NCBI GenBank assembly: GCA_016187335.1
Contig: JACPJW010000001.1
Location: forward strand, 4,547 to 68,546
Reading direction: 5' to 3'
DNA: 64,000 nucleotides
Source of the DNA: Candidatus Aenigmatarchaeota archaeon
GTDB taxonomy: Archaea > Aenigmatarchaeota > Aenigmatarchaeia > GW2011-AR5
Shown here: positions 3,595 to 52,382 of the stretch, piece by piece
Position numbering within the stretch: position 1 is the first letter of the stretch
How the letters are laid out: every line of letters begins with the position of its first letter
Notes under the pieces: generated by a model
Databases searched by the model: none
Seen by the model: the letters and a program-made list of their open reading frames with translations, nothing else
Told to the model about the DNA's origin: nothing
Translations under genes and position numbers: made by a program

Positions 3595-3759
3595 TAGTTT
3601 TAACAGACGCTAATAAACTTCTTAAAGTAATTCATCTGGAAAATTTCTACTTTCATGTAGTCAAACGGGGCAGAGGAAGGTAAACCAAAACCGTTTTGAT
3701 GCTCAGAAAGCAAAGCTTTCCTTTCTGGCATTGCCAAAATCCCTTGGATTTTGCGCAAT

Positions 3760-3885
3760 GAAACTTTTCTGATTCCGTTTCCTTGAAGAACGAAGTTCTT
3801 CGAGGTCCCAAAGAATCTTCGATTCTTTGAGATGATGAAACTTTTCTGATTCCGTTTTGATGAAACTTTTCTGAAAAGTTTCTAC
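3760..3885. repeat. Cluster of short repeats and palindromes downstream of the P-type ATPase stop
   Basis: Two copies of gaaacttttctgattccgttt (3760-3780, 3837-3857). Third copy ends in the 19-bp palindrome AAACTTTTCTGAAAAGTTT (3863-3881). Additional palindromes lie at 3785-3801 and 3810-3828. Confidence 0.7.
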
Positions 3886-6566: not shown

Positions 6567-6596
6567 CGTTTTGATTAAACTTTTATGAAAAGTTTA
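6567..6596. repeat. Copy of the cgttttgat-N-AAACTTTTnTGAAAAGTTT element upstream of the ATPase start
   Basis: cgttttgattaaacttttatgaaaagttta. The 19-bp palindrome spans 6577-6595 and is nearly identical to 3852-3882 and 52288-52317. Confidence 0.7.
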
Positions 6597-6797
6597 CTAG
6601 AAACAATTGTCGCTTCTGTTTTTAAAGAATTGCCGGCAGAAAAAGAAAATAGAGTTTAAATTCGCCATGCAAAGAGTGAATGGAAAATTTCCTCTCCGCA
6701 ATTCTCTTCACCACGAACCTCTTTTGAGCAATTAAACTTTGCAAAATAAAGTAATATTTTCTTTTCCGCAGACGCTTTTCTTTCCAAAGAAAAGGGC

Positions 6798-13362: not shown

Positions 13363-13496
13363 TAAGCATTACTATATGGTTCGTACCTATATTTATCTTT
13401 TCGGAAATTTTCCGGCCGTCTGAATGTAATTTCCTCGTAATGCGCATGCATGCTGTCTTATTATTTAAGCATTTGCCGATAACTTGTTAGCGTCAT

Positions 13497-13619
13497 AGCG
13501 GAGTGGAGCAGCCTGGAGTGCTCGTCGAGCAACTGGCACGAATGGCCCATAGGCATGCTCTAGGATACCCGAAAGCAATTATGCCGGGAAGGTCGGCAGT
13601 TCAAATCTGCCCTCCGCTA
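13497..13619 (+). tRNA. Intron-containing tRNA (anticodon not resolved)
   Basis: 5' acceptor AGCGGAG pairs with 3' CTCCGCT. D-arm GAGC/GCTC. T-arm GGCAG-TTCAAAT-CTGCC plus discriminator A. About 48 extra nt between D-arm and T-arm indicate one or more introns. Confidence 0.6.
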
Positions 13620-13824
13620 TATTTTTTCATTAAGACGAAAAGATGAAATGCCCTATGCAACCATTTTGCAGGCAGCATGAAAATGCTTCGCATCTTCGGT
13701 TTGCTTTCTGCAAGTTGAGCATTTCTTTTGCAATCGCTTCGTTTATCGGAAAGCGGTTTTCGCGATGGCAAAATGAATCAGTTTTTGTTTCTTCTTTTTA
13801 AGCGCTTTCTTTCAAGGTATAATC

Positions 13825-15066
13825 ATGAACCTTGTAGACAAGGCGCAGAAAATCTTGCAGCAGCCTGTATGCGACCACTGCCTGGGCAGGCAGTTCGGCC
13901 AGCTGCTGAGCGGCTTCGGGAACGAGCAGCGCGGCTCGATCATGAGAACGCTCGCGGCGATGGCAGTTGACAAGGAAGACTACAAGGGCGATATTGATTT
14001 TTCCAATTTCGCCGGCTATTCGTTTCATAATTTGGAACTGAAACAAACTTTTCCGAAAAGTTTGACCAAAAGGGAAACCGAAAAATGCTCCGTGTGCTTC
14101 GGCTTGTTTGAGAAGCTGCCGCAGTGGCTGAAGAAAATAGAAGCGAAGGCGAAGAATCAGGAGTTCAGGACATTCCTCATAGGCACCAAGCTGTCTTCAG
14201 CGCTTATCGGCGCAGAGGAGGATCTGTGGGAAAGGGTGGGGATAGATTACTGCGAGCCCCTCAAGGCTGAGATAAACAGGGAAATAGGAAAAACTGTGGA
14301 AAGGAAGTTCGGGGTCCGCTTTAACCCGAAAAATCCCGACGTGAATTTCATTCTAGACTTTGATTCCGGCAGCGTTAGCATAGAAGTAAATCCGTTGTTC
14401 ATCTACGGCGAATACCAGAAGCTCATACGAGGGATTCCCCAGACGAGATGGCCTTCGAGGAAGTACAGGACGAGCGTCGAGCAGATTATAGCAAAGCCTT
14501 TCATGAAAGCGACGCACGGCGCTGCGCATGCTTTCCACGGCATGGGCAGGGAAGACATAGACGCCCGCTGCCTGGCATGGCGCCCTTTTGTTTTGGAAAT
14601 ATCAAGGCCGCGCATAAGGTCGGTTGATTTGAAAAAACTCCCAAGGCAGATCCCGAAAAAAGTAAGGGTCAGGAATCTGAAGTTTTCAGGCATAAACGAA
14701 GTCCGTGCAATCAAGGAAGCCAAGGCGGATAAGACATACCGCGCCGTCGTGGAGTGCAGCGATAAAATAAATAAGAACGACTTGAAAAGACTTTCCGCCC
14801 TTGTTGCAACAATATACCAGAAAACCCCCCGGCGCGTTTTGCACCGCAGGGCGGACAAGGGGCGGAAGCGGGCTGTGCGCTCGATAAAAGCAAAATACCT
14901 CGGCCCCAAGAAGTTCCTGTTTGTTGTCAGGGGCGAGGGGGGGCTCTATATTAAAGAGCTTGTGAGCGGCGACGAAGGCAGGACAAGACCGAGCGTAGCA
15001 GAGCTGTTGGGAACAGCGTGCAGCTGCAGGGACCTGGACGTGATCAAGATACATGTCAAGAAGTAG
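13825..15066 (+). CDS. pus10: tRNA pseudouridine synthase Pus10 (Psi54/55)
   Basis: N-terminal Zn-ribbon motif VCDHCLGRQFGQL typical of archaeal Pus10. Length ~410 aa. Confidence 0.7.
   Translation: MNLVDKAQKILQQPVCDHCLGRQFGQLLSGFGNEQRGSIMRTLAAMAVDKEDYKGDIDFSNFAGYSFHNLELKQTFPKSLTKRETEKCSVCFGLFEKLPQWLKKIEAKAKNQEFRTFLIGTKLSSALIGAEEDLWERVGIDYCEPLKAEINREIGKTVERKFGVRFNPKNPDVNFILDFDSGSVSIEVNPLFIYGEYQKLIRGIPQTRWPSRKYRTSVEQIIAKPFMKATHGAAHAFHGMGREDIDARCLAWRPFVLEISRPRIRSVDLKKLPRQIPKKVRVRNLKFSGINEVRAIKEAKADKTYRAVVECSDKINKNDLKRLSALVATIYQKTPRRVLHRRADKGRKRAVRSIKAKYLGPKKFLFVVRGEGGLYIKELVSGDEGRTRPSVAELLGTACSCRDLDVIKIHVKK
14045..14063. repeat. Intragenic 19-bp palindrome AAACTTTTCCGAAAAGTTT
   Basis: Perfect palindrome inside the pus10 CDS with the same arms as the intergenic elements at 3863, 6577 and 52298. 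Confidence 0.6.
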
Positions 15067-16618: not shown

Positions 16619-19294
16619 TTACGGGCAGTATTGCCCCCATTCGTCCTCGGTAGGCTCCGCTCCCGAGCAGCAGGCCTGTCCTTCGCTTATTGAATAATAT
16701 TGATCCACACAGCTTACTTGAGTGAATTTGTCTTCGCCGCCGGTTCCGCTACCTCCGCCTGATGAGGGGCAGTAATAATATCCGTAATAATCCTGGACAG
16801 GCTGCTCGCCGGAACAGCACTGCTGCGTATACGGGTCAACATCCATGTAGTCTTCAACGCAGCCCGCAGGAACAAAGTCGTCCCAATAACCACCGCCTCC
16901 TGACGACGAGCTGCTTGTTTGCGCCAGGAGGTTGCTGGTCGCATCGTCCGCCCACACCCAGCATTGCGTTTCCGCGTCTTCGCCTTCAAATGTCTCGTAG
17001 CTCCCTATGCAATCGCCAGTGCTTTCTGAATCCACGCACCAGTAAGAGTATCCCGTATCACTGCCAACATCCGTAACAGCGCAACCGTAGAATGCATTTT
17101 CGCCTGCTGTCGCTCCGGCTGGTTCAAATCCCGGACCTGCTGCGAGCGTGTCGGAAGGGAGTTCCCTTTCTATCTCTGCTATAGTCCTGGTTCGTGTCGC
17201 TGCTGGTGTGCATGTTTCAAGGGTTCTGCTGCATCCCAATCCTCTGTAAACATACGCATCAGCGCCCATATCGTATTCGCATGAACATGCTCCGGCTGTT
17301 GTTCCTGTTTTGCTCTGCGCTGCTGCAACCGTGCACTCTCTGTCAGCATATAAAGTGGAAAGACAGTCGCTTCTTGCTCCGCTGGGATAGCACTGGTATC
17401 TTCCGGAATTATCTTTGCATAACTGGCTCGTTTCCTGCGCGGAAGTGGTTTTCTGCGCCGCTGGTGTTCCTTCCTCTACAACGCAATAGCTGTTCTTTGA
17501 AACAAGCTTCTTTCCTGCATCATTTGCATCACAGCATTTCGCACCTGAATCAAGGAACCCTCTTTCCTTCACGCAAGCCTGCCGGCCGTAAGGGAAGGAA
17601 GTAACGGACTCCGCTGTCTTGGGTTCTTCTGGTTTTGCTGACGTTCCTTTGTCTCCCAGCGATTCGCGTTTCGCTCCCCATGTCAGGCAGCACGTGTCGC
17701 CTTCGCCGGCTGTAGTGCATGACTGGGATTCCCTTGAAGACGAGGAGCTTCGCAGCCATCCCTTGCTTATTACGCAGTTCTTGTATGCTTCGCTGCTGCT
17801 GCTTATGCATTCGCCCTTGAGCTGGGCGCAGTATGTCCTCTTTGCTGCCGCCGTCGTTGCCGCGCCGCTTTTCTTGGCTTCGCATTCTTCTTTTGTTGAA
17901 TAAGATGACAAAGTCCTGCTGGGGTCGCATTCTGTAACGCACACTTCTGCGTATTCTCCCGAATCCGGCTCGTCAAGGGCGCAAAGCTTGTATTTCTGTT
18001 CTGCTGCGGCCTCGCCGTATTTGACAATAACAGCAAACCTGTCGTAAGTCTTGCCGTCAGCAACAAGCTGGACAGTACCGGTGTCAATGCTTGCTATCGG
18101 CCTGCTTCTCGCTGATGCCCTTGTCCTTTCCCGCAGGACTTCTTCCGTTGGCACGCTTCCCAGCACGTCGCCCGGTTTCAATGTATCTTTATACTTATTC
18201 AAAGCCGCCTGGCATTGAGAAAGCGCTGTGGAGCCTGCATAGCCTTCTGCTTTCAACACATCAAAGCCTGTATCGTACGGCAGTTCGCCGGAGCTGTCCC
18301 CGCATTTCTGCCTGCAGTATATCTTTTCCGTCAATGATGCTTCGTCGTACGCGGAGCACGCAAAAACGTTCTGCGACACTGCTACGGGTTTCGTTACTGT
18401 GGTGACAGGTCGCGCTGGCGCTTTTGTTGCTGGGGGTTTTGCAGTAGTTATCGTGGGTTTTTTAGCAGCTGCCTCGCTCTCACGTTGTTTTGTCCTTGCC
18501 TCGGCTTCCGCTTTCTGGCGGGCGTTAAGAACTGACGGTTCCGCAGGCTCTTTCTTTCCGCCTATGTTTATGCAGCATTCCTCTTCAAGTTTGCACTCCG
18601 AGACAGTTCCCTGAAACACTGTCCCGCCCAACTGGTCGCACCCGCTGGCTCCAAGTACAGTGTTCTTTATTCTTGTGCATCTCCCGTTAAGAGGCTGGCC
18701 GCTGCATTTTGGCGCAGAGCCTACGCGAATACAGCTTTCCCACCATGAACATCCCTCGCGGTCCAATCCTTCTCTTCCAAAGCCTAAGAATCTGCATTCG
18801 CCTTTCCTTCCGTACTGGTCTGTATCCGTGCACTTCAGTTTTTGAGAAGTCGGCGCGGCGGCGGGCGGCGGAGCAGGAGATGACGCCTTTGAAGCATCGG
18901 TCTTTGCCTTTTCACATTCAGCTTTTGCATAAGGTCCGCCTTTCGCGTACTGGGATTCGTCATTACAGCTTTCAAGGCAGTCAAATCTTTTGCTGTCCCT
19001 TACATATCCGCACAGGTAAAATTTCCCTGCAGTCTGCATCCCCGTTATCGGAATAGCCGCCTCTTCCTGCAGCGCCGCTTTTTCCTCCTGCGGCTGCAGC
19101 GCAAAGTATGTTCCTTTGTCCGTGTCTACCTTCACAACAGAATACGAAGCGAAGCCCGTCGCAGCAGAAAGATTTATCTGGGAATAAAAAATTGCCATCG
19201 CAACCAGCAGGGAAGCTGCAAGAATGTAGCGCGACGAGGGCACATTATGGCTCTTTTCGCCTTTGGAATGCTTTCTGTATTTCCGTGGCATCAA
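16619..19294 (-). CDS. Very large secreted Cys-rich surface protein (paralog family 2)
   Basis: N-terminal signal/TM. About 60 Cys. Thr/Ala/Pro-rich linkers. Shares blocks with 19419..21632 (LNARQKAEAEARTKQ, KLKCTDTDQYGRKGEC..GFGREGLDREGC, KIYCRQKCG, SQSCTTAGEGDTCCL). Confidence 0.6.
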   Translation of the reverse strand: MMPRKYRKHSKGEKSHNVPSSRYILAASLLVAMAIFYSQINLSAATGFASYSVVKVDTDKGTYFALQPQEEKAALQEEAAIPITGMQTAGKFYLCGYVRDSKRFDCLESCNDESQYAKGGPYAKAECEKAKTDASKASSPAPPPAAAPTSQKLKCTDTDQYGRKGECRFLGFGREGLDREGCSWWESCIRVGSAPKCSGQPLNGRCTRIKNTVLGASGCDQLGGTVFQGTVSECKLEEECCINIGGKKEPAEPSVLNARQKAEAEARTKQRESEAAAKKPTITTAKPPATKAPARPVTTVTKPVAVSQNVFACSAYDEASLTEKIYCRQKCGDSSGELPYDTGFDVLKAEGYAGSTALSQCQAALNKYKDTLKPGDVLGSVPTEEVLRERTRASARSRPIASIDTGTVQLVADGKTYDRFAVIVKYGEAAAEQKYKLCALDEPDSGEYAEVCVTECDPSRTLSSYSTKEECEAKKSGAATTAAAKRTYCAQLKGECISSSSEAYKNCVISKGWLRSSSSSRESQSCTTAGEGDTCCLTWGAKRESLGDKGTSAKPEEPKTAESVTSFPYGRQACVKERGFLDSGAKCCDANDAGKKLVSKNSYCVVEEGTPAAQKTTSAQETSQLCKDNSGRYQCYPSGARSDCLSTLYADRECTVAAAQSKTGTTAGACSCEYDMGADAYVYRGLGCSRTLETCTPAATRTRTIAEIERELPSDTLAAGPGFEPAGATAGENAFYGCAVTDVGSDTGYSYWCVDSESTGDCIGSYETFEGEDAETQCWVWADDATSNLLAQTSSSSSGGGGYWDDFVPAGCVEDYMDVDPYTQQCCSGEQPVQDYYGYYYCPSSGGGSGTGGEDKFTQVSCVDQYYSISEGQACCSGAEPTEDEWGQYCP

Positions 19295-19418: not shown

Positions 19419-21632
19419 CTACGCGCCGCAGTAAAAGCTGTCCCACCCTTCGCCGCATCCCTGATAGACGGAGTAGTCGAGGTCATAATCGTAAACGCAT
19501 TCGCATGTATCCGTCTGGTCAGACGTCGGCACGAATTCGTCTCCGCCTTCAAATCCGCCGCCTTCGGCCGGAGTTCCCTGCCATTCTGCAGCAGGCGCCT
19601 TCAGTTCCCTGCCTGTTTTTTGCTCGCATTCTTCTTTAGGCATGTCTGATTCAACAACAGTATCCCAGCCGCAATCAGATGCTTCAGAGCAGTATTTAAC
19701 ATTATAGACATCGCCGTAGTAATCCGTCTCCTCGTATGAGCACAGCACCCTCGGCTCAAACTTCAGGCAGCACGTGTCGCCCTTGCCTGCTGTAACGCAC
19801 GACTGCGAAGCTGATGAATATGAAGGGCTTGTCAGTTCCAATCCTGTATAACATGAATCAACGCTTGAATCCACGCACCTGCCTATGAGGTCCTCGCAAT
19901 AAGTCCTTTCTGCAGCAGGCTTCGCAGGCTCGGCCGGTTTCGCGGGCTCTGCAGGTTCAGCAGCTTCGGCAAATCTGATGATTACTGCTGTCCTGTCGTA
20001 AGTATTTCCTTCAACAGTCAGCGTCTGGTAGCCCAGGTCAACGCTTTTTATCAAGTCGCCGTGAAACAGCGACCCAGGACTCAATTCATCTTTGTATTTC
20101 TTCAAAGCGACCTGGCAGTCAGAAAGGTAATCAAATCCATTTGACCTCATGATGCCTGTATCGTAAGGGTCGTTGAATATTCCTTCCAGGGCGTCCCCTC
20201 CGTTCTCCGGCCCGCACTTCTGCCTGCAGTATATTTTCTGCAGCAGCTTATCAGGTAGCAGACTCCCCGGCGGTTCCCCTTCATATCTAGTGCACCCGTA
20301 AAACGTCGTGGCGCGCAGGACTTCGGACGTGGTCGTCGTTGCGCCGCGCGTAGGGGTTGGCGCGGGCGCTGAAGGTTTTGTAGCCGCTCTTGAAGGCACT
20401 GACGATTCAGTACATAAAACATTTCCCTGTTCATCATTAACAGGATTGAGTCCTCCGCAGCATGACTCCCCTGCTTTTGTTATGTAATCACCTTTCTTCA
20501 CGCAGGAAGGTCCTGGTGCTTCAGGCACGCCCGTTTCTCTTTCCAGCCTTTTCTTGACAACTTCGCATTGAGCAAGGGTGCTGAATCCGCTCTCAAATCC
20601 TTTCACACTTACTTGGTAATCCGTAGCTGTCTTGTCACACTCAAAACCGCAGTAATACGGAACGTTTGTCACTAAAAACGTGGTTCTGCATAATTTATAA
20701 TAGCGGGAAACAGAAGGCGCCGCAGGCACTGCAGAAGATTTTACGCACTGCCTGTTTTTGGAAACCAATCCTTCGCAACAGCTGTCTCCAGACCTTTCAA
20801 TAAACTGTCCTTCCTTGACACAAAACGTTCTTGCAGCAGGCTGCGCTGCTGCAGGCTTCACGCATTGTTTATTTTTGGAAACAAGACCTTCGCAGCATGC
20901 ATCCTTGGCTCTTTCAATATATTGTCCTTCCTTGACGCAGAATTGTGCCGGTGGCTGCGCTGATGGTGTGGTAACTTTGTAGCATGCACTCCAGAAATCA
21001 CATCCCTCGCGATCTTTTAGTTGTTCCCTGCCAAAGAAGCCTTGCCAAGTACATTCTCCTACAACACCTTTGGAATCCTCTTGCCAGCATTTGAGTTTAG
21101 CAGAAACCGAAGACTGTGCAGCTGCTGACGGCTGTGCTTGTGATAGCCCCGCGGATGCTGCAGCTCCCTGGGTGCTCTCGCTCTGCCTTGTTCTCGCCTC
21201 GGCTTCTGCCCTTTGGCGGGCGTTAAGTCCCGATGCTGCGGATGGAGTTGATGGCTGCACTGATGGAAGCGCTCCTCTAAGACAGCATGCACCTGTATAT
21301 CCGCATGAGCCAGCTACCTCGCTGTCAGGACATGGCGAACCAAGAAGAAAGTAGGGTTTTCCTTTGCACTCAGCGCTGATTCTTGGATTATTCGCGCATG
21401 TTTTTTGCTGAGGCCGTGTTCCGGCTTCTTCCGTCGCAAATCCCGTCACCGGCACCGCAGCCTTTTCTTCCTGCACGTCAACGTAAAAAGAGCCCTGGGC
21501 AAGCTCGGGGTGCGCTTCGGTAAAATCTGTCACAAGCCCCGTCACGGAGCCTTTCACGTCTAAAGCCGAATAGGCAAACGCGAGGGAAACAAATAAGAAA
21601 AGCACCCCTAACTCTTTCAGAATGCGGGACAT
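19419..21632 (-). CDS. Very large secreted Cys-rich surface protein (paralog family 2)
   Basis: Signal peptide. Shares conserved Cys-containing blocks with 16619..19294. The upstream ~25 nt (21633-21660) are similar to 19295-19320. Confidence 0.6.
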   Translation of the reverse strand: MSRILKELGVLFLFVSLAFAYSALDVKGSVTGLVTDFTEAHPELAQGSFYVDVQEEKAAVPVTGFATEEAGTRPQQKTCANNPRISAECKGKPYFLLGSPCPDSEVAGSCGYTGACCLRGALPSVQPSTPSAASGLNARQRAEAEARTRQSESTQGAAASAGLSQAQPSAAAQSSVSAKLKCWQEDSKGVVGECTWQGFFGREQLKDREGCDFWSACYKVTTPSAQPPAQFCVKEGQYIERAKDACCEGLVSKNKQCVKPAAAQPAARTFCVKEGQFIERSGDSCCEGLVSKNRQCVKSSAVPAAPSVSRYYKLCRTTFLVTNVPYYCGFECDKTATDYQVSVKGFESGFSTLAQCEVVKKRLERETGVPEAPGPSCVKKGDYITKAGESCCGGLNPVNDEQGNVLCTESSVPSRAATKPSAPAPTPTRGATTTTSEVLRATTFYGCTRYEGEPPGSLLPDKLLQKIYCRQKCGPENGGDALEGIFNDPYDTGIMRSNGFDYLSDCQVALKKYKDELSPGSLFHGDLIKSVDLGYQTLTVEGNTYDRTAVIIRFAEAAEPAEPAKPAEPAKPAAERTYCEDLIGRCVDSSVDSCYTGLELTSPSYSSASQSCVTAGKGDTCCLKFEPRVLCSYEETDYYGDVYNVKYCSEASDCGWDTVVESDMPKEECEQKTGRELKAPAAEWQGTPAEGGGFEGGDEFVPTSDQTDTCECVYDYDLDYSVYQGCGEGWDSFYCGA

Positions 21633-24073: not shown

Positions 24074-26464
24074 TTATTTCTTCCTTCTTATTTTTATTTT
24101 CCTTTTTCCGCCGGCTGTTTTCTTCTGCATGTAGAGCCAGTAGCCGAACGCCGCGATAAACAGCAGGCCGATCAGCTGCACAGAGCTGAATTCCGCAAGC
24201 CCTTCTGCGAATATGAGAACGGACCCCACAGCCTCGTACTTCTTCCCGCTGCTCCTGCTCGTCGCCGTGTATTTTATTCCGTACGAGCCGGAGCGGGCGG
24301 CCGTATCCATAAAAACTGAAACGCCCTTGCTGCCCAGTGCCGGAACATCAAGCACGGCTGCGTCGTTGTTGCCCTGGACAATTGAGCAGCCAGAAGGATT
24401 AGGGCATTCCGCGTGCATCCACTGCAGCGGCGTCACGGGGTCGTCCGACGGCTTTGAAGCTAAATCGAACGTTGCAGCTTCCAGGGGATTCCACACAGTG
24501 ACGTCGTAAGCCTTCTTATCCAGCTCGCCCGCGCTGAACCGCTTCTCAACAGGCACAACAGTGACGCGCGGCGTGCACGTGACAAAAAAGCGGAACTGGT
24601 TCACGGCGCTTAATCCCTTGTCAGGGTCCCTTGTCTTGTTCGAAAGTATGTACAAAGTATGGTAAGCGTCGCAGCTTAACGCTGCTGTAGGCGGGCTTCC
24701 GACAAATGCGTTGTCAAAATCATTCCAGCTCAGCTTTTTCCACTCAAACCTGTCTATGTCGTAAGACGCCTCGCAGTCGGCATCGTTGCATTCCTTCAGC
24801 GATGACGGATTCCCCAGAATGCCCTGCGTGACGCGCGCCAGAAAGTTGACGTTGGTGCCTCTGGTCAGGTTCGGCTCGCCTGTTGGCGTATAAGGAAACA
24901 ATTGGTTGACAACGTCAGGATATTCAACTGTGGTGCGCAAATAGCGGTTTGTCACATTCAGGTTCTTGCATCCAGGCGGAACGCACGGTGATGGCTGACC
25001 CGGCGGTATGGGTCCCGGAGGCTTCGGCTCGTTGGCAGCTGAGTATGTCACGCCGAATGTTCCGGGCTTCGTGGAGTTCCACGCCCCGGTATTGTCAACA
25101 GCAACTACGTAGGCGGTGTAGCTGCCTACGGCGAGCGATGATGTATCATAATAAGTGCACCTGTAGATGTTCCCGGAAAACAGCAGCATTTCACAGAACT
25201 TCGCCTCGCATCCGGTCGCCGTCACGTTGTTGCACGCCTTAACAGCGGAAACGGCAACATCGTCTGTCACGTCCGCGGAAAATATCACCTCGTTGCCTTG
25301 CATCACCATGCCGGGCACTATCGTGAAATTGCTTATCTGCGGCAGCAGGTTCACGCCGAAGGTGTCAGAGCCGCACCCCTCCAGCCCCTCGCTCTCAACG
25401 CATCCTGTTATTTCAGATTTGTACCTGCTCGTGTCAATCTCAACAACCCATCTCTTGTTGCTGTCGTCATAATTGCTGTTCTGGTTCCAGTTTTCCGCAA
25501 GCAGATAGTTCCTTTCCTTCGGCGTGCCTTTGTCTATGGTTATGCTTCTTATCGTAGTATCTGTCCTCGTGCAGTCCCTGCGGGCGCCCTGCGCATCGAC
25601 AAGGTAGCACGATATGTACGCGTAGACCTTCTCGCCCTCGCGCGGGTATTTGTTGGAAACAGCTGTTGTCACGTAGAGCCGCGCGGTTCCCTGCTCGAAG
25701 CGCTGCACAGTGAAGGTCGCTGTCTTTGTCGGCGAGAGCAGCGTCCCGTCGAAGGCCCTGCAATATACCGTCTTCGCCCCGGCTGAATTGCCCCACGGGT
25801 TCGTGTCAAACGTGCACGAAGGGTTCTGCGGCACGTAGCTGCTCGTGCACGCGTTGTTGCTTCCTTCAGCCGTTCCGCACTCCAGCCGGATGTTCTGGCC
25901 GTCCGGATCCGAGGCGCTGCTCGATATCGTTCCCCTTTCGTTATTGTCGGCGTTGATGACCGAAGGCGACACGCTTATCCAGTCAAGTGCCGGCGCCCTG
26001 TTCGGCTGCGATATGCACTGGCCATTTACGCACTGGTATTCGCACGCCTGGCAGTTCGATGACTGCGCTCTTGTTTGTGTCACGCTGTAGGTGCACTGGC
26101 CCTGGGTCGAGCTGCATGAATAATCCCTGTATTCCTGGTTCTGGAAAGTGCACTTCTGGTTGCCGGAGCATCCCTGGTAAGTTCCGCCGGTGTCGAACCA
26201 TCCGTTCTCGCGGCATTGCCACGTAACAATTAACGTGCACGAGCCGCAGTCGGCAGCGCATCTGCCGCAGTCTTCGTTGAACGTGAACCACATGCCGCTT
26301 TCGCATATGCCGTTGCCGCATAGAGGGTCCTCCGTGCCGCCGCGTCCCCCGTCATGGTCGGCGTAAACGATGCTTACTGAAAACATGACGGCAACAAAAA
26401 TGATTATTGTTGCTAAAAAAGCTGGCTTAGGGACCGCAATAACTTCATCCTTTTCGCGTGTCAT
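24074..26464 (-). CDS. Large Cys-rich cell-surface protein with C-terminal membrane anchor
   Basis: N-terminal signal. CGNGICE..CGRCAADCGSC module. Many Cys pairs and Ig/beta-sandwich-like regions. C-terminal TM followed by a basic tail (KKTAGGKRKIKIRRKK). Confidence 0.6.
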   Translation of the reverse strand: MTREKDEVIAVPKPAFLATIIIFVAVMFSVSIVYADHDGGRGGTEDPLCGNGICESGMWFTFNEDCGRCAADCGSCTLIVTWQCRENGWFDTGGTYQGCSGNQKCTFQNQEYRDYSCSSTQGQCTYSVTQTRAQSSNCQACEYQCVNGQCISQPNRAPALDWISVSPSVINADNNERGTISSSASDPDGQNIRLECGTAEGSNNACTSSYVPQNPSCTFDTNPWGNSAGAKTVYCRAFDGTLLSPTKTATFTVQRFEQGTARLYVTTAVSNKYPREGEKVYAYISCYLVDAQGARRDCTRTDTTIRSITIDKGTPKERNYLLAENWNQNSNYDDSNKRWVVEIDTSRYKSEITGCVESEGLEGCGSDTFGVNLLPQISNFTIVPGMVMQGNEVIFSADVTDDVAVSAVKACNNVTATGCEAKFCEMLLFSGNIYRCTYYDTSSLAVGSYTAYVVAVDNTGAWNSTKPGTFGVTYSAANEPKPPGPIPPGQPSPCVPPGCKNLNVTNRYLRTTVEYPDVVNQLFPYTPTGEPNLTRGTNVNFLARVTQGILGNPSSLKECNDADCEASYDIDRFEWKKLSWNDFDNAFVGSPPTAALSCDAYHTLYILSNKTRDPDKGLSAVNQFRFFVTCTPRVTVVPVEKRFSAGELDKKAYDVTVWNPLEAATFDLASKPSDDPVTPLQWMHAECPNPSGCSIVQGNNDAAVLDVPALGSKGVSVFMDTAARSGSYGIKYTATSRSSGKKYEAVGSVLIFAEGLAEFSSVQLIGLLFIAAFGYWLYMQKKTAGGKRKIKIRRKK

Positions 26465-33869: not shown

Positions 33870-34154
33870 ATGCCGTTATTGAGCGTACATAACATGGATT
33901 TGCTCCTTGTGCTGTTCGCGGTCCTCTATTTGGGAAGGGCAGCGCTGTTCAGGGATAAGGTGCCGAACGGGTTCAAGTGGCTCGCGGCCGGAGGCCTGGT
34001 TATACTCGTGCCTGTGGGCCTGTCAGCTGTGAACTGGACACTGCTGGGAATGCTCGAGGTGTTCCGCACGGTCGACACGTGGCTGAGCCTGCTTGGAGGA
34101 CTTCTTATCCTGGCCGGTTCCGTCAAGACCCTGATGGAGCTCTTCAGCAAGTGA
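33870..34154 (+). CDS. Small membrane protein, hypothetical
   Basis: 94 aa with three predicted TM helices. Confidence 0.35.
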   Translation: MPLLSVHNMDLLLVLFAVLYLGRAALFRDKVPNGFKWLAAGGLVILVPVGLSAVNWTLLGMLEVFRTVDTWLSLLGGLLILAGSVKTLMELFSK

Positions 34155-34249
34155 CCCTTTTCACGAGTAAACGCGAAAAAGCGTCAACGGAAAAGTATAT
34201 GGCCCGGACAGAATTGAGAACGCTGACAGTTTTTTGCTTTTCTTTTTTC

Positions 34250-44345: not shown

Positions 44346-44582
44346 TTACTCATACGGTTCTCCGGATGGTGTTACCCAAGTTTTTAGTTTTCCACATCTT
44401 CGACATCTTGAATGGTGATCAACAACATGGGAAGCACCGTGAAAAATTGATGTTGATGGTCCATAATCATGAAGTCCTAATTTACATTTTAAGGATCTTC
44501 CAAAATCAATTTTATAATATCCACGTATTAAAGCATAGGGGAAAGTAATAATTCTAAGTATCCATTTTATTATCCGATTCAT
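44346..44582 (-). CDS. Hypothetical small protein
   Basis: 78 aa ORF with C-terminal C..C/H..H pattern. Confidence 0.3.
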   Translation of the reverse strand: MNRIIKWILRIITFPYALIRGYYKIDFGRSLKCKLGLHDYGPSTSIFHGASHVVDHHSRCRRCGKLKTWVTPSGEPYE

Positions 44583-44637
44583 TTGATCATCTTAATATTC
44601 TCAGATTTCAAGTGTTTGCACCTACCCTTTTTATATG

Positions 44638-44793
44638 CGAGGGGCCGGATTCGAACCGACGAAGGCACTAAGCCACTAGGTATCTCACATGAGACCAGAT
44701 GGCTCCATGGCCTGAACATAGCCTCAGGACCTAAGCTTGGCTTACAGCTGTTACCTGATCTAGCCCCTTTGTCCACTCGGGAACCCTCGCTTA
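44638..44793 (-). tRNA. Long intron-containing tRNA, class II-like (probably Leu)
   Basis: Minus strand: 5' GCGAGGG...T-arm GTCGG-TTCGAAT-CCGGC-CCCTCGC-A. D-arm TTCCCGAGTGGACAAAGGG is class II-like. A variable-arm hairpin is present. CTTAGG/CTGAGG candidate anticodon loops both read Leu. ~65 extra nt imply one or more introns. Confidence 0.55.
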
Positions 44794-45414
44794 AGGCTTT
44801 TGAATTATTGCAACAATATCCATCGGGAACAATTTAAACGCTTTATGGCTGCTGTCAAAGACTCTTAGAACTTTAAAGCCGCTTTCTTCCAGAAGCTTTC
44901 TTAGCTCCTTTCTTGAGAAGAAGTAATAGTAACGATGATACTCATTATCTCCTATTTTCCACCGCACGAAATCCTCCTTCCTTTTGAAATTAAGCCTTGG
45001 CTGGTTCTTGTTCCAGACGCTTATTATTGCTGACGATCCGGGCTTCATTACCCTCCACATTTCCATTACGGATTTCTTTCTTGGTTCTTCTCCCTCAATC
45101 TGGTGGATAACATTTGCCGCGACAACAGCGTCGAAAACATTATCCTTGAACGGCATCGCATCTGCACGCGCGACGGCAAAAAAGGCTTTTATTTTTTCCT
45201 TAGAGGCTTTTTCCTTAGCAAGTTTGATCATTTTCTCTGCAAAATCAAAACCCACATATTTTTTCCCTTTGATCATGTGTCTGCCAGATCCACATCCTAA
45301 ATCAAGAATCAAGCCTTCTGAATTAGAGATGAAATCCACTATATCTTTATGGGGCTTTGTCCTCAAGCGATGCCATTCCGGAGCAATAGAATTCCATACT
45401 TCCCTTTGTTTCAT
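44791..45414 (-). CDS. Class I SAM-dependent methyltransferase
   Basis: LDLGCGSGRH motif I and DAVVAANVIHQ motif. Confidence 0.75.
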   Translation of the reverse strand: MKQREVWNSIAPEWHRLRTKPHKDIVDFISNSEGLILDLGCGSGRHMIKGKKYVGFDFAEKMIKLAKEKASKEKIKAFFAVARADAMPFKDNVFDAVVAANVIHQIEGEEPRKKSVMEMWRVMKPGSSAIISVWNKNQPRLNFKRKEDFVRWKIGDNEYHRYYYFFSRKELRKLLEESGFKVLRVFDSSHKAFKLFPMDIVAIIQKP

Positions 45415-45476
45415 GGTAATAATCAGAAAAAAGCCCTTTTAAAATATAGTTTGTAATTTGTTACAGTCTTCAAATT

Positions 45477-45723
45477 GCTCCCGTAGTCTAGCCCGGCAAA
45501 GGAGAAACTGCGTTTCTCCCTTTACCCTCTTCCTTTCTGAAAAAGAAGGGAATGAGGTTACAAGGAGAGAACCGTAGGTTCTTCTCCTGTTAGGATATCG
45601 GCCTCTCAGCACCCTTTCTTTTGAAAAAGAAAGTGTGCACGGAAAGAAAACTTCAGAAAAGCGTGAACGGAAAGAATGGGTGGAAGTTCGCCGAAGACGC
45701 GGGTTCAAATCCCGCCGGGAGCA
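45477..45723 (+). tRNA. Very long tRNA-like gene with probable multiple introns (anticodon unresolved)
   Basis: 5' GCTCCCG-TA-GTCTAGCCCGG... and 3' ...GCGGG-TTCAAAT-CCCGC-CGGGAGC-A give a perfectly paired acceptor and T-arm ~247 nt apart. Interior contains palindromic hairpins (CTTTCTTTTGAAAAAGAAAG). Confidence 0.5.
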
Positions 45724-45791
45724 TAGAATTATCGGGATATATATAGCAACGGAAAAATTGAACGCTGACGTATATCCTGAAGAATATAGAA

Positions 45792-47252
45792 TTATGGTGA
45801 CTGACAGTCAAATGTAATATTCATAAAAACTTGTGAGTTTATAGGCATAGACAATTGTGTAAAGGTGAATCCATTGTTGTCGTTATTTGAAAATGAGTTC
45901 CTCGTAGAAGCCCAGAATATTCTCCTACTTGTTTCTATATCACAATAATTTGAATTTGTGCAAGTTGAAAGTCTAACATCTTCAATAATCGTTGCGTTAC
46001 TAAATTTACCAGTCACATTAGTAATTGAGCATAACCTTCCTATGTTCTGGAAAGCTTGAAGAAAGACTTCTTGAATTACAAGATCTTTTGGAAGGTTGTT
46101 TGTAATATTAACTTCAAAATAAGATACGTTGTAGATTTTTCTAACGTCTGTTTTTGGGATTTTGATTTTATCAATATTTCCTTGATCCAATACAAATCCA
46201 GTGAGATTTATCGACCTAAAAGAGAAGTTTGACCCAGTCAAAACAATTACGTTAGAATTATTGTAGTATATTACTTCCTTAAGTCCAATCTTATTGAATT
46301 CGTCATACTTTTGTTTTAAAGAAATTGGGTATGTTCTATATGTTTCATTAACATTCAATATTACTCCAAAATAATTTTGATATGCATAATTGAAATCCAG
46401 ATCATTAACAGTATAGTTTCCAATTTCAAACGGTACCCATCCATAAAACCCTTCATTTTCTATTTCAAATTGTTGAGATTTGTGTTTGTAAAGAACTGCA
46501 TTATTGAAACTTTCAAAACTACTAACAGAAGTACCATTACCGTCCAAGTAATAGAAATCAGTACTTTCTGAAATGAAATGTGTCTGTGGCATAGAGGAAT
46601 AACTTATTAAAGTAAAAATTATCAAAGACGCGATAAGAAAACTAATCAAAAATTTCCTTTCGAATGGCTTTAGAGTTACAACGGGTAGTTCATATTTGAT
46701 CTTATTGTTCTTATACAAAGTCAAACATACCAACGATAAAATTACTAATGAAAATGATGTTTGAAGAAGAATAATAGAAAATATTCCATATGCCGAAAAT
46801 ATTGCTGTTGCGCTATTCAGAAGAATTACGCAGGACAAAATGAAGAAAGCAATAATACCCATTTCTAAAGCTAGAAATGAATTTTCACGCTCTTTTTTTG
46901 AAAATACTCCACCCCATACAAAAACAATACTTAGAAGTAAGATAAAACTTATTATGTAATTCAAACTATCAATAATATTTTTATTATATAGGAAAATATT
47001 GTTCGAATAAACTAAAAATCCACCTATAACAATGTAAAGTGTAATGTATACAATTAGCCCAAGTCCTCCTGAAAGAATTAACTTATCAACATCGCTCAAT
47101 CCAAATCTAAATTTTTTTGATTTGAAATCGTAAGTTGATGCAAAAATTAACGAATATCCAAGAAATAAGACCAATACTTTAACGAGCGTATTAGCACCGA
47201 AATAATCAAAGGCTGCATTTACAGCGTCTGCAATTCCAAGTGGGTCTGCCAT
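45792..47252 (-). CDS. Polytopic membrane protein with large C-terminal extracytoplasmic domain (AT-rich)
   Basis: ~8 N-terminal TM helices then a ~250 aa Asn/Ile-rich domain. No family recognised. Confidence 0.45.
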   Translation of the reverse strand: MADPLGIADAVNAAFDYFGANTLVKVLVLFLGYSLIFASTYDFKSKKFRFGLSDVDKLILSGGLGLIVYITLYIVIGGFLVYSNNIFLYNKNIIDSLNYIISFILLLSIVFVWGGVFSKKERENSFLALEMGIIAFFILSCVILLNSATAIFSAYGIFSIILLQTSFSLVILSLVCLTLYKNNKIKYELPVVTLKPFERKFLISFLIASLIIFTLISYSSMPQTHFISESTDFYYLDGNGTSVSSFESFNNAVLYKHKSQQFEIENEGFYGWVPFEIGNYTVNDLDFNYAYQNYFGVILNVNETYRTYPISLKQKYDEFNKIGLKEVIYYNNSNVIVLTGSNFSFRSINLTGFVLDQGNIDKIKIPKTDVRKIYNVSYFEVNITNNLPKDLVIQEVFLQAFQNIGRLCSITNVTGKFSNATIIEDVRLSTCTNSNYCDIETSRRIFWASTRNSFSNNDNNGFTFTQLSMPINSQVFMNITFDCQSP

Positions 47253-52092: not shown

Positions 52093-52153
52093 TCGGAGGA
52101 CTAGGCTTTAATGAGTTCAAATGGGCACGACAGGATATTCGCCACTGACCTCT

Positions 52154-52184
52154 TTTGATGAAACTTTGGAGCAGCAAAGTTTCT
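52154..52184. repeat. Variant copy of the ttttgatgAAACTTT palindromic element
   Basis: ttttgatgaaactttg-gagcag-caaagtttc with 9-bp inverted arms, immediately 5' (plus coordinates) of the tRNA-like fragment. Confidence 0.55.
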
Positions 52185-52185
52185 A

Positions 52186-52230
52186 TGAGCCCGATGGGAT
52201 TCGAACCCACGACCTTCTTGGACCTATTCT
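52186..52230 (-). other. Orphan tRNA 3' fragment (T-arm + acceptor 3' strand) or highly non-canonical tRNA
   Basis: Minus strand GGTCGTGGG-TTCGAAT-CCCAT-CGGGCTC-A is a clean T-arm and 3' acceptor. No matching 5' acceptor strand could be found within 100 nt. Confidence 0.4.
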
Positions 52231-52287
52231 TACATCACTGCAAAAACAGTCGGTCCGAAGCCGGACGCTCTATTTGCCACAACTTTT

Positions 52288-52317
52288 CGTTTTGATGCAA
52301 CTTTTCTGAAAAGTTGC
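52288..52317. repeat. Copy of the cgttttgatgcAACTTTTCTGAAAAGTTg element
   Basis: Near-identical over ~30 nt to 3852-3882 and 6567-6596. Palindrome spans 52298-52316. Confidence 0.7.
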
Positions 52318-52382
52318 CCTGGCTAAGCTACGGGCCCAGCAGCATAATGATGTATGTTAGAACAAGCGCTTATAAATTATAT

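Follow-up and report, generated by a model that had tools for sequence, protein, structure and literature searches.

Two predicted multi-intron tRNA genes, tRNA-Leu(UAG) and tRNA-Glu(CUC), flank a methyltransferase gene in an Aenigmarchaeota archaeon, with a candidate second anticodon cassette in a tRNA-Leu intron

Transfer RNA genes with multiple introns are described from the Thermoproteales, Korarchaeum and the archaeal Richmond Mine acidophilic nanoorganisms (ARMAN) by Sugahara et al. (2008), in the account given in the review PMC4033280, and tRNA intron transposition in the Thermoproteales is attributed to Fujishima et al. (2010) where that work is cited in PMC4033280 and PMC10714607. Split and tri-split tRNAs with shared pieces are known for Caldivirga maquilingensis tRNA-Gly and Nanoarchaeum equitans tRNA-Glu (PMC4033280). 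For the DPANN archaea, as yet unidentified disrupted tRNA genes have been predicted and incomplete predicted tRNA sets noted (PMC5829648). What might explain why standard annotation finds no tRNA in a 64-kb stretch of the genome of Candidatus Aenigmarchaeota (DPANN), the whole of which is called the window here? The multi-intron structure of its tRNA genes provides the explanation. Two loci on either side of a gene for an S-adenosylmethionine (SAM)-dependent methyltransferase are, judging from sequence, very probably functional archaeal genes for tRNA-Leu(UAG) and tRNA-Glu(CUC), each with two introns of the bulge-helix-bulge (BHB) type. Heavily disrupted tRNA genes are thus a known kind, found here in a new lineage, the Aenigmarchaeota.

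An earlier note on this DNA had described two oversized tRNA genes flanking a SAM methyltransferase, and this was borne out, the spliced products being canonical and the orthologs flanking the same methyltransferase. Both genes have 7-bp acceptor stems and canonical T-arms, in agreement with the complementary acceptor strands and the T-arms that the note had recognized. Its length of 247 nt for the plus-strand gene (45477-45723) stands; the other gene, on the minus strand, is 155 nt long, from A73 at 44636 to G1 at 44790, and not 156 nt at 44638-44793. The extra internal sequence, placed there at 65-170 nt, differs slightly, being 71 nt in the tRNA-Leu gene and 172 nt in the tRNA-Glu gene, and where multiple or very long introns had been proposed, each gene is found to hold two of BHB type. 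Leucine, suggested there for one of the two genes, is the identity of the minus-strand gene, and the other is tRNA-Glu(CUC). The relatives used for comparison are fetched contigs (numbered L001 onward) that encode homologs of the methyltransferase, and the ingroup among them has five members, the window, L003+L001, L002, L004 and L005, with no more present in the collections scanned. The tRNA-Leu gene is organized as follows.

44636..44790, minus strand: tRNA-Leu gene, 155 nt including the discriminator A73; CCA not encoded
44760..44790, minus strand: exon 1, gene positions 1-31, to G30 of the anticodon stem; invariant in the 5 ingroup orthologs
44737..44759, minus strand: intron 1, 23 nt, at tRNA position 30/31, gene positions 32-54; BHB 4/4, bulges AG/A and AA/G
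44730..44736, minus strand: anticodon micro-exon (cassette 1), GCTTAGG = G31 C32 U33 U34 A35 G36 G37, anticodon UAG
44682..44729, minus strand: intron 2, 48 nt, at position 37/38, gene positions 62-109
44636..44681, minus strand: exon 3, from A38 to A73; it contains the long variable arm and the T-arm

The boundary of exon 1 is set by the BHB central helix GGCT:AGCC (4/4 pairs) with the bulge AG/A, and at the 37/38 intron the central strand of cassette 1 forms CTTA:TGAG, again with 4/4 pairs, so that both introns of this gene have complete central helices and 3-nt bulges in the 2/1 register. Explicit splicing gives a canonical 84-nt class II tRNA-Leu(UAG) cloverleaf. An ortholog without introns settles the junctions directly: the 84-nt tRNA-Leu(UAG) gene at L006 3615-3698 has the anticodon arm CTAGG-CTTAGGA-CCTAG, in which cassette 1 is contiguous with both flanking exons, and removal of gene positions 32-54 and 62-109 from the window gene leaves exactly this arm. 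An intron of 21-52 nt at 30/31 is found in the ingroup and in most outgroups (L007, L013, L018, L019), with none in L006, and the outgroup Leu genes have no 37/38 intron. The predicted junctions of the UAG product are GGGGCTAG/GCTTAGG/ACCTAG. A TATA-like TTTAAAT at 44832-44838 (minus strand) lies within the 3' end of the methyltransferase open reading frame (ORF), 41 nt upstream of tRNA-Leu G1, and may be an internal promoter for tRNA-Leu.

The tRNA-Glu gene lies on the opposite strand.

45437..45448, plus strand: TATA-like box TTTTAAAATATA, 28 nt upstream of tRNA-Glu G1; putative promoter, read from the sequence
45477..45723, plus strand: tRNA-Glu gene, 247 nt including A73; CCA not encoded
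45477..45499, plus strand: exon 1, through the D-loop to about position 20b
45500..45591, plus strand: intron 1, 92 nt, in the D-loop at about 20b/21, with multiple hairpins; boundaries +/-1-2 nt
45592..45608, plus strand: exon 2, A21 to A37, containing the anticodon CTC
45609..45688, plus strand: intron 2, 80 nt, at the canonical position 37/38; repeat family 2 (CCCTTT...ACGGAAA)
45689..45723, plus strand: exon 3, C38 to A73

Explicit splicing produces a canonical 75-nt tRNA-Glu(CUC) cloverleaf. Intron 2 has the central helix (H) CTCT:GAAG, with 3/4 pairs and a C34.A mismatch, and the intron-side helix (h') CACCC:GGGTG of 5 bp. L005 and L007/8 lack it precisely where the junction is predicted, CTCTCA being followed directly there by CGCCGA.../CGGCGA..., and this contiguity fixes both the 37/38 junction of the 80-nt intron and the anticodon CUC. 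The 3' strand of the central helix (H') at this site is GGAG in L002 and L006 and AGGG in L004, each pairing 4/4, and GAAG in the window, according to our reading by hand. Intron 1 has a relaxed BHB, with the central helix CGGC:CCTG (3/4) and an h' of 4 bp, and at this site 8/8 Glu orthologs have a D-loop intron, 12-13 nt long in L005, L002 and L004 and longer in L003, L006 and L007/8. Bulges are of 3 nt in the 2/1 register at both introns. The internal hairpins that had been noticed in this gene are real and lie within its introns.

The standard tools are silent on both loci: ARAGORN with default settings reports 0 tRNAs across the 64-kb window, and Rfam gives no match for either locus at gathering thresholds. 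This silence is a limitation of the method and no proof of absence. With introns allowed, ARAGORN reports four long genes, at 13496-13620 (+), 44636-44790 (-), 45476-45724 (+) and 52185-52338 (-). Only one intron is modelled in this mode, and the isotypes that it assigns, Met for 44636-44790, His for 45476-45724, and Pro and Leu(AAG) for the remaining pair, are therefore artefacts and were discarded. When supplied as spliced products, the Leu, Glu, initiator tRNA-Met (iMet) and Arg sequences are all recognized without the intron mode.

Several observations nevertheless weigh against the splice models given here. Brute-force enumeration of BHB-like introns scored by ARAGORN returned hundreds of "valid" products, so that acceptance by ARAGORN cannot discriminate by itself, and the comparative junctions decided instead. 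In thermodynamic folding, the 4-bp BHB helices have an ensemble probability of at most 1.5% for every route, and folding therefore neither predicts them nor discriminates between routes. The central helices of both Glu introns carry one mismatch and are relaxed (3/4), and the Glu D-loop boundary is ambiguous by 1-2 nt, the register GGCA:TGTT giving a foldable product of 74 nt; that register was set aside since it does not fit the orthologs. Neither EndA nor RtcB was found within the 64-kb window by protein-family scans. What carries the multi-intron reading is the comparative evidence: exons are invariant, intron interiors vary, and relatives are intron-less exactly at the junctions. From established knowledge of archaeal tRNA splicing, each gene would be transcribed as a single precursor, the ends of which would be trimmed by RNase P and RNase Z; the EndA splicing endonuclease would cut in the 3-nt bulges, an RtcB-type ligase would join the exons and circularize the introns, and CCA, because the genes do not encode it, would be added post-transcriptionally. 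The earlier proposal that these transcripts are substrates of the splicing endonuclease is supported by the predicted BHB geometry at all four junction pairs.

The 37/38 intron of the tRNA-Leu gene contains a second sequence resembling an anticodon micro-exon, and can be subdivided accordingly.

44718..44729, minus strand: linker T-CCTGA-GGCT-AT, comprising the candidate switch strand CCTGA, an alternative H' GGCT and a bulge; identical in 5 orthologs
44711..44717, minus strand: candidate micro-exon (cassette 2), GTTCAGG = G31 U32 U33 C34 A35 G36 G37, anticodon CAG
44682..44710, minus strand: variable remainder of the 37/38 intron, ending in H' TGAG and the bulge AT/A

Formally, cassette 2 is the 5' part of the 37/38 intron, the first 19 nt of which, ending in GTTCAGG, are invariant in 5/5 ingroup orthologs. 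They form part of a longer block, AAGCCAA-GCTTAGG-T-CCTGA-GGCT-AT-GTTCAGG, corresponding to gene positions 48-80, which is invariant in all five and as conserved as the exons. Identity ends precisely at gene position 80, the last base of GTTCAGG, and the intron interiors flanking the block vary, with lengths of 23-52 nt on one side and 29-55 nt on the other. A splice from exon 1 into cassette 2 would have GGCT:GGCT as its central helix, with 4/4 pairs, two of them G.U, the bulges AG/A and AT/G, and an upstream h', TCAGG:CCTGA, of 3-6 bp. On the downstream side of this cassette, TTCA finds its partner in the H' used by cassette 1, 4/4 where the latter is TGAG and 3/4 where it is TAAG (three and two orthologs, respectively). 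The h' helix here begins 1 nt past cassette 2 and measures 5, 3, 6, 1 and 4 bp across the five orthologs, with sequences that differ between them: CATGG:TCATG in the window, CACTAG:TTAGTG in L005, CACT:AGTG in L002 and CTT:AGG in L001. On the UAG route, h' is mostly of 1 bp, in contrast to the longer helices of the CAG route, and, judged by BHB criteria applied to the predicted pairing, the CAG route is no less canonical than the UAG route. Its predicted junctions are GGGGCTAG/GTTCAGG/ACCTAG, and the alternative CAG-spliced product folds as a canonical tRNA-Leu(CAG). The strand CCTGA can pair with one or the other of two copies of TCAGG, at 44754-44758 (ensemble probability ~0.60) or at 44711-44715 (~0.39), but not with both at once, and the constrained minimum free energies of the two conformers are 0.8-5.7 kcal/mol apart. 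A second cassette was also considered elsewhere: in the Glu introns, a candidate UUC was rejected as TTTC is followed by T37 and not by a purine, and none was found on reading the Arg gene. When public collections were scanned with the Leu block, the matches were limited to the L005 contig, already in the comparison, and random bacterial sequences, with none among viral contigs.

How is the invariant block to be explained? One reading, which we advance tentatively and rate at somewhat less than an even chance, is that alternative BHB splicing would include either GCTTAGG (UAG) or GTTCAGG (CAG), in a mutually exclusive manner, and so produce two isoacceptors from one gene. Pairing of CCTGA with the TCAGG at the start of intron 1 would build a full hBHBh' motif, with cassette 1 skipped and CAG as the result; pairing with the TCAGG of cassette 2 would form a hairpin hiding cassette 2, with UAG as the result. 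Within the ingroup clade, the double cassette would have replaced a separate, tandem tRNA-Leu(CAG) gene kept by the outgroups. In favor of this are the exon-like invariance of gene positions 48-80 between variable interiors, with its boundary at the end of GTTCAGG, the better BHB geometry of the CAG route, its canonical product and the two competing pairings of CCTGA. The distribution of genes points the same way: a full separate tRNA-Leu(CAG) gene lies downstream of Leu(UAG) in the outgroups L006, L007, L008, L012, L014 and L019, and L013 has at least the anticodon loop of one; cassette 2 was not found in the outgroups with a separate Leu(CAG) gene (including L013), and the ingroup is the reverse, no separate tRNA-Leu(CAG) gene having been found in the available ingroup sequence, including the whole 64-kb window. 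CUG makes up 43% and CUA 3% of the Leu codons in the 25 supported genes of the window. In shuffled sequences, a second Leu-type BHB-compatible cassette arises at a rate of 1e-3, or 1.7e-5 if h' is also required, in a test that is post hoc. The identity elements of leucyl-tRNA synthetase do not include the anticodon. Against alternative splicing it must be said that a separate Leu(CAG) gene may lie elsewhere in the ingroup genomes, that the alternative central helix holds two G.U pairs, that the comparison extends to five orthologs only, that the shuffling test was designed after the pattern had been noticed, and that we found no precedent, that is, no literature report of cis alternative splicing that alters a tRNA anticodon.

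The gene may instead make Leu(UAG) only, which we consider quite possible if short of probable, the invariant CCTGA-GGCTATGT-TCAGG hairpin being a structural or protein-binding element that, for example, orders the removal of two close introns, and the likeness to a CAG anticodon being a by-product of duplication. This would agree with the orthology of the host gene to the outgroup Leu(UAG), which has the same anticodon stem and variable arm, and with the 4/4 central helices at both introns. The flank of cassette 2, GGCTAT/GTTCAGG, resembles the 3' end of the outgroup 30/31 intron plus its cassette, GGCCAT/GCTTAGG, which suggests that cassette 2 arose by duplication of a module consisting of an intron end and an anticodon, and is consistent with a relic of this event. 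However, were the hairpin purely structural, its stem would be expected to change in a compensatory way and its loop to vary freely, yet stem and loop are both 100% invariant despite a scrambled neighboring intron; the conservation boundary and the covarying helix start exactly at the splice position of cassette 2, and the heavily used CUG codon would be left without a dedicated decoder at the locus. It is unlikely that the gene makes Leu(CAG) only, with cassette 1 lying within one 42-nt upstream intron as a relic of an ancestral UAG gene. The more canonical hBHBh' motifs of the CAG route and the dominance of CUG among the Leu codons would fit, but cassette 1 together with its own H' and bulge (AAGCCAA-GCTTAGG-T) is invariant even though it would then be placed in an unconstrained loop, and CUA codons would require another decoder. 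Finally, the loci could be pseudogenes of tRNAs, remnants of integration sites or structured RNAs other than tRNAs, a very improbable reading to which the silence of standard tools and the occurrence of intron repeat sequence in intergenic DNA might seem to point. Their exons do not vary among relatives and, once joined, give perfect cloverleafs, BHB pairing is kept while the sequence changes, and no Rfam family is detected for the introns even at E<=10. As for the suggestion in the earlier note that such genes serve as integration sites, the annotated flanks showed neither an integrase nor an att-like duplication, although no search aimed at these was made. Moreover, the tRNA genes seen in the 64-kb window carry 2-3 introns in 4/4 cases, and since all are interrupted the Leu and Glu loci would be the organism's working copies.

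The two remaining tRNA genes of the window are the following.

13497-13619, plus strand: initiator-type tRNA-Met, with A1-U72 and three G-C pairs in the anticodon stem; spliced 75 nt
52186-52337, minus strand: tRNA-Arg(UCG), spliced 75 nt; an ortholog in L002 supports the identity

The iMet introns are of 16, 15 and 17 nt, at about 29/30, 37/38 and 43/44, and the anticodon loop is CCCAUAA, in which C33 replaces the near-universal U33. In the Arg gene, a 44-nt D-loop intron containing the family-1 repeat described below has the BHB GCCA:TGGC and a 9-bp h', and a 33-nt intron at 41/42, in the 3' strand of the anticodon stem, has the BHB GGAC:GTCC and an 11-bp h'; the central helices are thus 4/4 and h' is 9-11 bp at both. 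The L002 ortholog of this gene has an 18-nt intron at 30/31 instead. Extra T-loop introns are seen in the tRNA-Glu and tRNA-Leu genes of L002 (GCA_053529875.1; 3500-3720 and 2560-2827), which makes three introns per gene, and the one in tRNA-Glu lies at 59/60 and has a clean BHB, TTCA:TGAA.

Many of these introns are built from two families of repeats that are also dispersed outside tRNA genes. In family 1, the palindrome AACTTTTCnnAAAAGTT precedes CATCAAAA(C) and another copy of GAAAAGTT is often present, and family 2 has the form CCCTTTTC...hairpin...CGGAAAAG (CCCTTT...ACGGAAA).

3640-3880, 6569-6596, 14040-14085 and 52153-52166: copies of family 1 in the window; the family is also present in L001, L002, L003 and L005
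6730-6796, minus strand: copy of family 2 directly after the stop codon of RNase Z
about 34150-34200, plus strand: copy of family 2 directly after the stop codon of another ORF

The family-1 motif has 4 sites in the window; being a palindrome, it matches on both strands at each, for 8 strand matches where 0.5 would be expected. Within tRNA introns, family 1 is found in the D-loop of the window Arg gene, in the D-loop of the Leu gene of L003+L001, at Glu 37/38 in L003 and in the Glu T-loop of L002; it also occurs just 3' of tRNA genes (L005 Leu and window Arg), on either side of a gene for a P-type ATPase, and within the Pus10 ORF, whose reading frame it keeps. This last copy was considered as an mRNA intron of the BHB type and rejected, there being no convincing motif. 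The copy at 3640-3880 is ~80% alignable over 72 nt with a tRNA-Glu intron of a relative. Family 2 occupies Glu 37/38 in the window, the Leu T-loop in L002 and the D-loop of a Leu(CAG) gene. The Glu intron 2 of the window is ~75% alignable to the T-loop intron of the L002 tRNA-Leu, and the copy at 6730-6796 is nearly identical to that same T-loop intron. At Glu 37/38, family 2 is present in the window and family 1 in its closest relative, L003. The latter, a contig of 991 nt, breaks off at family-1 repeats on either side and overlaps the start of L001, from the same sample, through the repeat; the joined sequence shows a third intron, in the D-loop, in tRNA-Leu, and the breaking of the assembly at family 1 implies that the genome of this relative has many copies. 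Since both families recur at different sites of different tRNAs and also between genes, the introns were probably gained by mobility of introns or of an element. Family-1-like motifs are also present in AT-rich contigs of IMG/VR, just upstream of ORFs, a position from which the tail of family 1 may be promoter-like, resembling a transcription factor B recognition element and TATA box. No known RNA was recognized in the introns: cmscan at E<=10 over 44500-45800 gave only chance matches to microRNA-like hairpins and a T-arm fragment, and the C/D box motif RUGAUGA was not seen on reading the intron sequences. The introns, of 23-92 nt and with no Rfam match, are unlike homing-endonuclease, group I or group II introns. 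The genes themselves are not split or tri-split, since the pieces of each follow one another on a single strand, within 155 nt for Leu and 247 nt for Glu.

The gene between the two tRNA loci provides the anchor for synteny.

44791..45414, minus strand: generic class I SAM-dependent methyltransferase ORF, 207 aa; Pfam Methyltransf_11/25/31

No curated NCBIfam model matches the protein at cutoff. Its stop codon, TAA (44793-44791), directly adjoins tRNA-Leu G1 at 44790, and the 3-nt overlap of methyltransferase and tRNA reported in the earlier note does not exist, the stop codon having been included in the tRNA. In all related contigs that reach far enough, tRNA-Glu, methyltransferase and tRNA-Leu follow one another in this order. 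A search of genome contigs with the window methyltransferase yielded no relatives, and a search with that of L002 gave no close homolog by which the ingroup could be enlarged. In the outgroup contig L013 (687-791), and also in L014, L015 and L017, the 5' part of tRNA-Leu(UAG) seems to extend ~55 nt into the 3' end of the methyltransferase ORF, going by the coordinates from ARAGORN, which mis-types the gene. In L018 (2165-2869), an ORF resembling a homing endonuclease (LAGLIDADG_3) lies between the methyltransferase and tRNA-Leu(UAG), and its 3' end overlaps the 5' end of the tRNA; that it is an intron-encoded homing endonuclease was rejected, as it sits upstream of an intact Leu gene and outside the intron. 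Genes nearby in the window encode TrmY, Pus10, RNase Z, class I lysyl-tRNA synthetase and a GatB/GatE-family protein. The assignment to the Aenigmarchaeota is backed by a DUF763 protein of the window, 100% identical to one encoded on a 918-kb contig of a metagenome-assembled genome of Candidatus Aenigmarchaeota. Three large ORFs on the minus strand, 16619-19294 (891 aa), 19419-21632 (737 aa) and 24074-26464 (796 aa), have no Pfam match.

The multiply interrupted genes matter for estimates of tRNA complement and completeness in metagenome-assembled genomes of DPANN archaea. They also constitute a compact dataset for the gain, loss and replacement of introns between close relatives, and tie tRNA introns to dispersed repeat modules. 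Should the two Leu cassettes prove to be alternatively spliced, the supply of isoacceptors could be set after transcription through RNA structure, which would be a new way of gene economy in reduced genomes. It would be the first alternative splicing that alters a tRNA anticodon, as far as we found in the literature, and, in the long-running debate over the relationships among split, tri-split and intron-containing tRNAs, would supply an intermediate open to direct testing.

How do these loci compare with the systems already described? Like the genes of Thermoproteales, Korarchaeum and ARMAN, they have 2-3 BHB or relaxed-BHB introns at the canonical position (37/38) and at non-canonical sites (D-loop, anticodon stem, T-loop), are missed by standard finders and, by analogy, would depend on a splicing endonuclease of broad specificity. 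They differ in the Aenigmarchaeota host, in the multiple interruption of 4/4 window tRNA genes, in introns as long as 80 and 92 nt, and in the 7-nt micro-exon of the Leu gene. A C/D box small RNA is encoded in the tRNA-Trp intron of Euryarchaeota, which is ~100 nt long, structured, situated at 37/38 and has a function of its own; the long structured 37/38 intron seen here is similar, but the introns here have no C/D boxes and no Rfam match. The closely similar introns of families 1 and 2 at different positions of different tRNAs are reminiscent of intron transposition in the Thermoproteales. Unlike there, the families are also found in gene flanks, in tRNA 3' trailers and in the Pus10 ORF, and close relatives carry different families at one site, as the window and L003 do at Glu 37/38. 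If both Leu cassettes are used, the locus would share with tri-split tRNAs the combination of one tRNA body with alternative anticodon pieces, joined through BHB-type motifs to give synonymous isoacceptors. Tri-split tRNAs are assembled from separate genes joined in trans, whereas the Leu locus has tandem cassettes in one transcript and a choice made in cis; it does not belong to that class, and could be viewed, were alternative splicing to hold, as its cis counterpart.

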